Below are positions 31,189 through 35,047 of a DNA stretch of 64,000 nt, one piece after another. How positions within the stretch are numbered: position 1 is the first letter of the stretch; each line of letters starts with the position of its first letter. This DNA is from Escherichia coli (GTDB lineage Bacteria; Pseudomonadota; Gammaproteobacteria; Enterobacterales; Enterobacteriaceae): the NCBI RefSeq assembly GCF_003790525.1, contig NZ_CP033635.1, one strand, 5' to 3'. The notes beneath the pieces were generated by a model. It was not told the DNA's origin. It ran no database searches and saw nothing but the letters and a program-made list of their open reading frames with translations. The translations under genes were made by a program, and so were the position numbers.

Positions 31189-31267
31189 CGAACGTAAGTC
31201 TGATGCGGCGCATTAGCGTCGTATCAGGCAATCAATAATGTCGGATATGAAAAGCGGAAACATATCG

Positions 31268-32578
31268 ATGAAAGCGATCTTGATCCCATTTTTATCTCTT
31301 CTGATTCCGTTAACCCCGCAATCTGCATTCGCTAAGAGTGAGCCGGAGCTGAAGCTGGAAAGTGTGGTGATTGTCAGTCGTCATGGTGTGCGTGCCCCAA
31401 CCAAGGCCACGCAACTGATGCAGGATGTCACCCCAGACGCATGGCCAACATGGCCGGTAAAACTGGGGTGGCTGACACCGCGCGGTGGTGAGCTAATCGC
31501 TTATCTCGGACATTACCAACGCCAGCGTCTGGTGGCTGACGGATTGCTGGCGAAAAAGGGCTGCCCGCAGCCTGGTCAGGTCGCGATTATTGCTGATGTC
31601 GACGAGCGTACCCGTAAAACAGGCGAAGCCTTCGCCGCCGGGCTGGCACCTGACTGTGCAATAACCGTACATACCCAGGCAGATACGTCCAGTCCCGATC
31701 CGTTATTTAATCCTCTAAAAACTGGCGTTTGCCAACTGGATAACGCGAATGTGACTGACGCGATCCTCAGCAGGGCAGGAGGGTCAATTGCTGACTTTAC
31801 CGGGCATCGGCAAACGGCGTTTCGCGAACTGGAACAGGTACTTAATTTCCCACAATCAAACTTGTGCCTTAACCGTGAGAAACAGGACAAAAGTTGTTCA
31901 TTAACGCAGGCATTACCATCGGAACTCAAGGTGAGCGCCGACAATGTCTCATTAACCGGTGCGGTAAGCCTCGCATCAATGCTGACGGAGATATTTCTCC
32001 TGCAACAAGCACAGGGAATGCCGGAGCCGGGGTGGGGAAGGATCACCGATTCACACCAGTGGAACACCTTGCTAAGTTTGCATAACGCGCAATTTTATTT
32101 GCTACAACGCACGCCAGAGGTTGCCCGCAGCCGCGCCACCCCGTTATTAGATTTGATCAAGACAGCGTTGACGCCCCATCCACCGCAAAAACAGGCGTAT
32201 GGTGTGACATTACCCACTTCAGTGCTGTTTATCGCCGGACATGATACTAATCTGGCAAATCTCGGCGGCGCACTGGAGCTCAACTGGACGCTTCCAGCTC
32301 AGCCGGATAACACGCCGCCAGGGGGTGAACTGGTGTTTGAACGCTGGCGTCGGCTAAGCGATAACAGCCAGTGGATTCAGGTTTCGCTGGTCTTTCAGAC
32401 TTTACAGCAGATGCGTGATAAAACGCCGCTATCATTAAATACGCCGCCCGGAGAGGTGAAACTGACCCTGGCTGGATGTGAAGAGCGAAATGCGCAGGGC
32501 ATGTGTTCGTTGGCCAGTTTTACGCAAATCGTGAATGAAGCACGCATACCGGCGTGCGCTCTCCATCAAGACAAATAA
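31268..32578 (+). CDS. appA: Periplasmic acid phosphatase / phytase AppA
   Basis: Signal peptide [22 protein letters not shown] and histidine acid phosphatase motif RHGVRAP. C-terminus here is ...[10 protein letters not shown], longer than and different from the K-12 ending as I recall it (...IPACSL); the stop overlaps the cspH stop on the other strand. Confidence 0.93.
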
Positions 32579-32778
32579 ACATTTGCCGCTGTTGGTCCTC
32601 GCAGGCCATTTACGCGGCAAAATTCCACGCGTAATCCTGGTATAAGCACTTCCGCGTCGCGGGGAGTGAATGCGGAAATATGGACCTGGACTTCTTTACG
32701 ACCGTCGGAGGGGATAATGAATCCTTTGCCGCTTTTGCGATCAAAGGTTTTGACAATTCCTGTCATTTTACGGGACAA
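32566..32778 (-). CDS. cspH: Cold-shock-like protein CspH
   Basis: 70-aa [40 protein letters not shown]... Confidence 0.93.
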
Positions 32779-33063
32779 ACAAATTCCTTACTGAAAATAC
32801 TGCGCTGCACTATACGGGGTTAATAAAATAAAGCCAGCGATATTTAAGACCGCCGGACGGCTAAAATAAAAATTGCTTAATCTCAATTATCATGCGTTAA
32901 TAGCTGCGTCGGTTTGAAAGACAGACAGCATACAAAGTAGTTTACTAAAGCAGTTCTCATTATCAGGCATTATCCCCTTCTTTTGAGTCTCTCTCCTGAA
33001 CACTAAGTAGTTTCTGTATTAAAGCCCTGTTTGCCGAAAGGCCCAAAATGAAGGAAGTAAAAT

Positions 33064-33276
33064 ATGTCTAATAAAATGACTGGTTTAGTAAAATGGTTTA
33101 ACGCAGATAAAGGTTTTGGCTTTATCACTCCTGATGATGGCAGCAAAGACGTTTTCGTCCATTTCACCGCCATCCAGAGCAATGAATTCCGCACGCTGAA
33201 CGAAAATCAGAAAGTTGAATTTTCTATTGAGCAGGGGCAACGTGGTCCCGCGGCAGCGAACGTTGTTACGCTCTAA
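33064..33276 (+). CDS. cspG: Cold-shock protein CspG
   Basis: 70-aa [45 protein letters not shown]... Confidence 0.95.
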
Positions 33277-33475
33277 GGTTGCCGTTATTACTCAACATCT
33301 CCATTTCCGCTGTCCATGTTGTCATGGTTCACAGTACCGCACATCGGCATTCGATGTGACGGAGCGAAATCCTTTAGGGGCAAAGTGTATTTTTTGTAAA
33401 TCGACGATGATCACCTTTGATAACGTCGCGCTGCAAATACGCACTGAGCATGCGCCGCTGGATTTCACAAAATAA
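33215..33475 (+). CDS. Hypothetical small Cys-rich protein (CPCC...C..C zinc-ribbon-like), possibly ymcF; true start unresolved
   Basis: ORF in this frame ends at 33475, directly before a hairpin+T-run terminator (33481..33504), and contains CPCCHGS...CIFCKS. The first ATG at 33215 lies inside cspG, so the real start, if the gene is real, is probably downstream. Confidence 0.3.
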
Positions 33476-34965: not shown

Positions 34966-35047
34966 GATTTTGACAGTCCGTTAAGTTGCATACCAAATGC
35001 CACTATTCTAGTTGTTCTTAACTGGCTGATATTGATTCAAATCGCGT

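Follow-up and report, generated by a model that had tools for sequence, protein, structure and literature searches.

An apparently old and common capsule-operon-free allele at the appA-cspH junction of Escherichia coli, and a proposed history of its three-state locus

Introduction

The group 4 capsule (G4C) genes of Escherichia coli occur mostly in intestinal pathotypes and are present in 8% (15/195) of B2 strains, mostly LEE+ EPEC, while the group 2 capsule is carried by B2, D and F strains and some G and B2 strains have been suggested to have 'exchanged' capsule types (PMC8281228, Infect Immun 2021). The presence/absence pattern of the G4C operon among the E. coli phylogroups is therefore not new and is already documented, and the G4C cluster of Shigella sonnei has been drawn between cspH and appA (PMC4368438). 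In E. coli K-12, the 9,047 nt between the stops of appA and cspH comprise etk, etp, gfcE, gfcD, gfcC, gfcB, gfcA and IS1D.

Here, we analyse this site in a 64-kb stretch of E. coli DNA (the window, a term used throughout for that whole stretch), which shares 100% identity with E. coli SMS-3-5 (NC_010498.1) and in which, as in the RefSeq annotation of SMS-3-5, appA and cspH overlap. Three states of the locus are distinguished, namely a short spacer (S0), the 13-bp gene overlap of the window (S1) and the capsule cassette (S2). We propose that S1 is an old and common capsule-operon-free allele of this three-state locus, with a history running from S0 through S2 to S1, a reading to which we give about even chances.

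Results

In the window, the gene for the periplasmic acid phosphatase/phytase AppA occupies 31268..32578 on the plus strand (436 aa in its S1 form, according to the ORF list and the SMS-3-5 RefSeq annotation) and ends with a TAA stop at 32576..32578; an alternative upstream in-frame ATG at 31238 would extend the protein to 446 aa. The gene for the 70-aa CspA-family protein CspH lies at 32566..32778 on the minus strand (ORF list and RefSeq annotation), its TGA stop at 32566..32568 appearing as 'tca' on the plus strand. From the ORF coordinates, the 3' ends of these convergent genes overlap by 13 bp (32566..32578), the final four AppA codons and the stop being antisense of the cspH end. The last appA codons read TGC GCT CTC CAT CAA GAC AAA (C-A-L-H-Q-D-K), giving the tail ALHQDK, while AppA of K-12 ends ...IPACSL; over 432 aa the two proteins are 98% identical, the C-terminal tail alone being different (ALHQDK vs SL). 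AppA is a full-length orthologue within the histidine acid phosphatase/phytase family, with appC, appB and appX upstream and with PF00328 precomputed on its closest homologues, and the CspA-family protein CspH is 100% identical to K-12 CspH.

The allele-specific part of the junction is a 17-nt segment, GCTCTCCATCAAGACAA (32558..32574), which was delimited by junction comparison and is placed between the appA Cys codon TGC (32555..32557) and the common ATAAAC. This slot measures 17 nt in S1, 26-30 nt in S0 and 8,217-9,065 nt in S2. When all seven K-12 proteins were used as tblastn queries, gfc, etp and etk gave 0 matches in the 64-kb window, and appA and cspH abut where the seven genes of the G4C export locus would otherwise lie. 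No IS, integrase or repeat was found at the junction in the window. The initial annotation had described the junction without database searches, and its description holds up: the ORF coordinates agree with its 13-bp overlap and its two stops, the ending ...IPACSL that it gave for K-12 is correct, its statement that the whole gfc-etp-etk operon and promoter are missing accords with the tblastn result, and its claims of a breakpoint in the last codons of appA and of no mobile-element remnant are borne out by a difference from K-12 that starts right after the Cys codon and by the absence of IS and integrase at the junction. The same overlap geometry is repeated in loci L006-L009, L026 and L011-L014.

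No intrinsic terminator was predicted between or within the gene ends in a plus-strand scan of 32000..33300. The sole candidate structure beyond the appA stop was a weak hairpin, UUUGCCGC...GCGGCAAA, in the 3' part of cspH (32582..32621), with a non-significant fold z of -1.3. Since no predicted terminator separates the genes, the appA and cspH transcripts would have to overlap in antisense at their 3' ends. In S2 genomes, appA is directly followed by the cassette hairpin.

Beyond cspH, the window continues with cspG, from which cspH is divergent and which carries a cspA-type thermoregulator. The Rfam match to this element (RF01766, 157 bits; 32908..33330, plus strand) spans the cspG 5' UTR and coding region, as expected for a cold-shock gene. 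Further along, torS (35037..37780, minus strand) is annotated in SMS-3-5 as a frameshifted pseudogene. Its annotated span of 2,744 nt is not divisible by 3, and the open frame stops at 35048 rather than 35037, which places the shift near the 3' end. RefSeq flags torS as frameshifted also in ST131 strain 4224, 500010, 729_270514_x_12 and GF130, and leaves it unflagged in ST70, JNE120442 and O157 AR-0428.

The contiguous appA-cspH junction was detected in 1,675 of 5,426 complete E. coli genomes (31%) and is therefore no assembly artefact. A further 3,745 of these genomes contain gfc/etk DNA, making the two classes almost complementary (5,420/5,426). With all complete genomes pooled, this near-complementarity argues against a second gfc location, and from these counts the operon does not appear to reside elsewhere in the gfc-less genomes, SMS-3-5 included. 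One S1-type genome carries an IS1 inside the 601-nt junction query region (NZ_OZ546911.1, 4259479..4260856).

When the flanks of nine E. coli loci, five without gfc and four with it, were aligned, zero fixed class differences emerged in 2.6 kb on each side, and flank divergence between the classes equalled the divergence within them. The raised flank divergence that would mark linked old haplotypes was thus looked for and not found, with no fixed differences beyond the 17 nt. Genomes with and without gfc are interspersed in the flank trees, with gfc-bearing GF130 lying 0.4-0.9% from gfc-less ST131 and gfc-bearing O157 pairing with gfc-less ST70 in the left-flank tree. Class-specific DNA is confined to the interval between the appA Cys codon and ATAAAC (17 nt vs 8,287-8,293 nt, or 9,065 nt in K-12 with its IS1), and ST131, ST70 and other backgrounds all have an identical junction.

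Two individual loci show mosaic structure. In L033 (GCA_012763115.1, 4290..4311), whose B2-like background shows 99.4% identity to the ST131 locus, the S1 junction reads ...CA TCA AGA GAG and the AppA tail is ALHQER, one base from the E. coli S2 end. With a left side of S1 type and the Leu codon of S2, this locus is apparently an S1/S2 recombinant, whose crossover would lie within 3-6 nt of the indel. In the gfc-bearing GF130 (L015, 5615..11530), which has B2-like flanks, etk and gfcD are ~96% identical to K-12 and the adjoining gfc genes 98-99%, a contrast from which it follows that the cassette itself is mosaic.

An AppA scan of one genome per bacterial species led to four species representatives, SCPM-O-B-8794, E69, E. 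whittamii and Escherichia sp. E1V33, and the DNA-level reading covered one genome per cryptic clade. These four representatives, diverged from all E. coli by 10-15% in the left flank and 5-9% in the right, each have the 13-bp appA/cspH overlap, an AppA tail of the form (S/T)L(H/Y)QDK and no gfc; flanks so diverged contradict a recent import of E. coli DNA at their junctions. Together with E. marmotae (L026), S1 was thus found in five non-E. coli Escherichia lineages, whose junctions carry species-specific substitutions (AGTTTATATCAGGATAA, AGTTTACATCAGGATAA, AGCTTACATCAGGACAA, TCTCTCCATCAGGACAA and ACTCTCTATCAGGACAA, compared with GCTCTCCATCAAGACAA in E. coli). S2 is carried by K-12, O157, E. 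albertii and one E. marmotae. The E. albertii locus has the order appA-etk-etp-gfcEDCBA-cspH-cspG with AppA ending ...IPACSL, and 14/14 of the full-length E. albertii AppA variants listed are of the 432-aa S2 type. E. marmotae has both alleles, the cassette in L025 and the overlap junction in L026. Over 11.3 kb, the flanks of these two loci share 99.75% identity, and the 4 mismatches on the right (536 nt) correspond to the four differences in their last three cspH codons. Judged from these sequences, both S1 and S2 predate E. coli.

S0 was observed in two lineages represented by SRA assemblies that were placed by one or two genes, L027/L028 (SRR26188688/SRR26188687; AppA 77% identical) and L029 (SRR33454298; AppA 79% identical). 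Both are without gfc, and their genes do not overlap: the L027 junction reads TGC GGC TTG TAA CGCTCTCTTCAT TCA GGA AAG ATAAAC and the L029 junction TGC AGT TTG TAA TGCACTCT TTA AGA TAG ATAAAC, a layout of natural appA stop, spacer of 8-12 nt and cspH stop. With the E. fergusonii copy as root, the appA tree places L027 and L029 outside E. albertii, the clades and E. coli. Distant AppA homologues (E. fergusonii, Kosakonia) stop directly after ..AC(A/G)L, and those of other genera overall after ..AC(S/G/A)L. Neither E. coli (5,426 genomes) nor the listed E. albertii variants nor the cryptic-clade representatives showed S0. Additional S0 junctions were also sought in metagenomes, where a first scan yielded 0 matches and a second 24, none with appA, cspH or gfc homology. 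The E. fergusonii-type appA (L030, 10001..11287; AppA 65% identical, ending ..NPACAL) lies apart from appCB and cspH, after an AraC-type regulator and with hdeA-like and RND efflux genes nearby. Being at another locus, it is uninformative on the junction except for the AppA C-terminus.

S2 is probably an insertion of an ~8.2 kb gfc cassette into the S0 spacer, which would account for the natural ends of both genes in K-12. L029 reads AGTTTGTAATGCAC, TCT and TTAAGATAG in succession, and the E. albertii S2 has AGTTTGTAATGCAC followed by AAAAAAGAGC at its left end and TTAAGAAAG at its right end, matching L029 over the 14 nt of AGTTTGTAATGCAC, which include the stop codon and five spacer bases. 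On the other side, the S2 right ends TTA AGA AAG and TTA AGA GAG resemble TTA AGA TAG of L029. The left end of the cassette forms a strong hairpin (z = -3.9) followed on the minus strand by the U-tract UUUUUUAU, and is therefore taken as the etk terminator. From a ~440-nt region upstream of gfcA, the cassette extends through gfcABCDE-etp-etk to this terminator; as a block from promoter region to terminator, it constitutes a complete transcription unit.

The IS, integrase, att-like direct repeats or target-site duplication by which insertion or excision of a mobile element would be recognized are missing from the junction in the window, and the K-12 cassette has no flanking direct repeats, target-site duplication or GC anomaly (GC ~50%, like the flanks). 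IS1D of K-12 is a later insertion upstream of gfcA. Nucleotide identity between K-12 and E. albertii is 81-93% for the gfc genes and 82-92% for the flanking genes, and between K-12 and E. marmotae (L025) mostly 92-94% for gfc (84% for gfcA) and 83-95% for the flanking genes; given that gfc divergence matches flank divergence, the cassette diverged with the genomes. We also considered cspF of the Qin prophage as a source of the S2 cspH 3' end and discarded it, cspF ending TAC CTT TCA TGA; the gfcA-cspH spacer had no match in the Qin prophage.

Among the Etk homologues, no cassette donor with appA/cspH flanks was found, the closest non-Escherichia operon being that of Scandinavium (76%), in an unrelated context. 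Two further loci, L019 and L020, encode Etk-like kinases (87% and 82% identity to Etk of K-12) together with wza/wzb-like genes. One of them lies beside YagK/YfjJ-type island genes and the other beside IS91/IS66 transposases, contexts indicating that related export modules also travel on mobile DNA.

Recent losses of the operon were identified in two genomes, both of which, like the window, are without most or all of it. GPEC617 (L003, 3382..3807) has undergone an independent recent 8.4-kb gfc loss that retained a 426-nt 3' etk stub, the two aligned pieces overlapping by 8 nt at the breakpoint. LC-1302-2020 (L018, 5062..10061) has 61 nt of cassette DNA after appA, followed by an IS3-family element and foreign genes. 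Unlike the window, both retain ...IPACSL, TAA and the etk terminator. The foreign genes of LC-1302-2020 (a PIN-domain protein and an Arc-family regulator) replace gfc and apparently cspH too.

Discussion

The initial annotation had viewed the junction as a clean deletion scar or an ancestral absence. Recent loss of a K-12-like gfc region by the SMS-3-5 ancestor, specific to the strain or phylogroup, would account for the ~9 kb that K-12 holds at the site, and losses of this kind do occur, as in GPEC617 and LC-1302-2020. We nevertheless consider it scarcely credible, because the junction is identical across ST131, ST70 and other backgrounds and common to other species, and because the window is without the S2-type appA stop, the terminator and the cspH-proximal bases that a recent loss retains. 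Where such a scar would show, as that of GPEC617 does, the appA TAA after SL, remnants of the etk terminator or cassette and cspH TTA AGA GAG, the window reads GCT CTC CAT CAA GAC AA. A lineage-specific deletion from a K-12-like chromosome is therefore contradicted by the occurrence of the exact junction and extended AppA C-terminus in 31% of E. coli and in other Escherichia, and what may survive of the deletion scar is an ancient, pre-E. coli deletion of the cassette. Nor does the opposite reading fare much better, in which S1 is ancestral in Escherichia and the K-12 type arose by insertion of the operon directly into the 13-bp overlap. All four of the species representatives from the AppA scan are S1, as that reading would have it, but the deeper lineages L027 and L029 have S0, the S2 of E. 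albertii contains gfc genes that have diverged as far as the flanks, distant AppA homologues end ..ACxL, and the S2 left end matches L029 over 14 nt, stop included, which insertion into S1 would not recreate. With E. albertii and the two S0 lineages overturning it, we regard this reading as very unlikely. The initial annotation had held that a junction common to many lineages would make K-12 the insertion state; the junction is indeed common in many lineages, and K-12 would carry an insertion relative to the older short-spacer state, not to the junction of the window.

S1 is a deletion product lacking the appA stop, derived from S2 or from S0, and predates E. coli either way. That the deletion that formed S1 also took the cassette has, in our view, about even chances. 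On the S2 side, a deletion between two (A)TA repeats of S2 gives the exact 17-nt S1 register, with microhomology of 2-3 nt that E. albertii lacks. Read on the plus strand, the three final cspH codons are TCA GGA YAA in S1, with the TGA stop and TCC Ser of L027, and TTA AGA RAG in S2, and 3-4 of these 9 nt differ between S1 and S2 even within one species; an origin from S2 would therefore take several additional substitutions, or else the split must be very old. It is these same bases that lend some weight to a parallel origin, in which S1 never held the cassette, a 9-13 nt microdeletion in S0 took the appA stop and spacer alongside the S2 insertion, and the operon is ancestrally absent from the allelic lineage of the window. 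Cryptic-clade S1 shares cspH TGA and Ser TCC with L027, as against TAA and TCT in S2; S1 and S2 differ at 3-4/9 adjacent sites, compared with 0-2 between species within an allele class; E. coli, clade I and E1V33 read (G/A/T)CTCTC, matching the L027 spacer CGCTCTCTT; and removal of 9 nt from an L029-type spacer likewise yields the 17-nt register. The shared states nevertheless amount to two transition sites and a hexamer, for which homoplasy is possible, and under the microdeletion S0 must have survived next to S2 in the ancestor of the ingroup and later disappeared everywhere, there being no S0 in E. coli (5,426 genomes), E. albertii (14/14 listed variants of S2 length) or the clades. We thus hold derivation directly from S0 to be a serious possibility, clearly short of an even chance.

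Under our preferred history, S0 to S2 to S1, the primordial state would have been S0, with appA ending ...AC(S/G)L-TAA, a spacer of 8-12 nt and the cspH stop. Entry of the complete ~8.2 kb transcription unit into this spacer would have produced S2, with the natural ends of both genes kept. S1 would have had a single origin prior to the split of E. coli and the cryptic Escherichia clades, through a deletion starting inside the appA stop (after TA) and ending right beside the cspH stop. From then on, appA would read through HQDK, four extra codons antisense of the cspH end, to the TAA supplied by ATAAAC. The lost stretch comprised, with slightly better than even probability, the whole gfc cassette, removed via 2-3 nt of 'TA/ATA' microhomology. 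S1 and S2 would since have existed side by side in both E. coli and E. marmotae, moving from one background to another through homologous recombination in the flanks. The data show the three states, where they occur, the age of S1 and S2 and the homogenisation of the flanks, while the order of events and the functional consequences are inferred.

A broader interpretation, which we put forward tentatively and rate somewhat below even, is that of a trans-species polymorphism, in which several Escherichia species have retained two alleles older than E. coli, with opposing selection on O-antigen capsule production as the presumed cause and with the operon-free allele stemming from a single microhomology deletion that fused appA to cspH antisense. 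Both alleles are present in E. coli and E. marmotae, S2 divergence tracks that of the flanks and S1 differs between species, a pattern read from one or two genomes per species and to which old interspecies transfer with flank erosion could have contributed.

In terms of function, SMS-3-5 would be without the machinery exporting O-antigen as a group 4 capsule, and its AppA would be four residues longer. K-12 does not represent a default state, the 'missing 9 kb' being one of two old alleles. The junction allele is ordinary natural variation and carries small weight for annotation, SMS-3-5 having already been published. Our addition is modest and consists of the three-state reconstruction (a short spacer, a promoter-to-terminator cassette insertion and an overlap allele without the appA stop) and of the finding that E. 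coli and E. marmotae each contain both alleles between homogenised flanks. The locus would suit as a marker and as a small test case of a long-lived presence/absence polymorphism of a surface-polysaccharide export system.

Compared with known systems, the window junction occupies the identical chromosomal site to that of the G4C operon gfcABCDE-etp-etk (ymcDCBA-yccZ-etp-etk) of K-12, EPEC O127, O157 and Shigella sonnei. It shares with G4C-bearing K-12 the flanks appCBXA on one side and cspH-cspG-ymcF-ymcE-gnsA-yccM-torS on the other, and differs in having 17 nt in place of the operon, its ~440-nt promoter region and its terminator. Scandinavium sp. has a gfc-type operon with the same order from the gfcA-like gene to etk (Etk 76% identical), which shows that the cassette is a self-contained unit, in a context that, unlike the window, includes neither appA nor cspH. 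The published survey of capsule types works on gene presence/absence and does not describe the junction, the three states or other Escherichia species, and SMS-3-5 without G4C, like the ~31% of complete genomes without it, fits the distribution reported there (PMC8281228).
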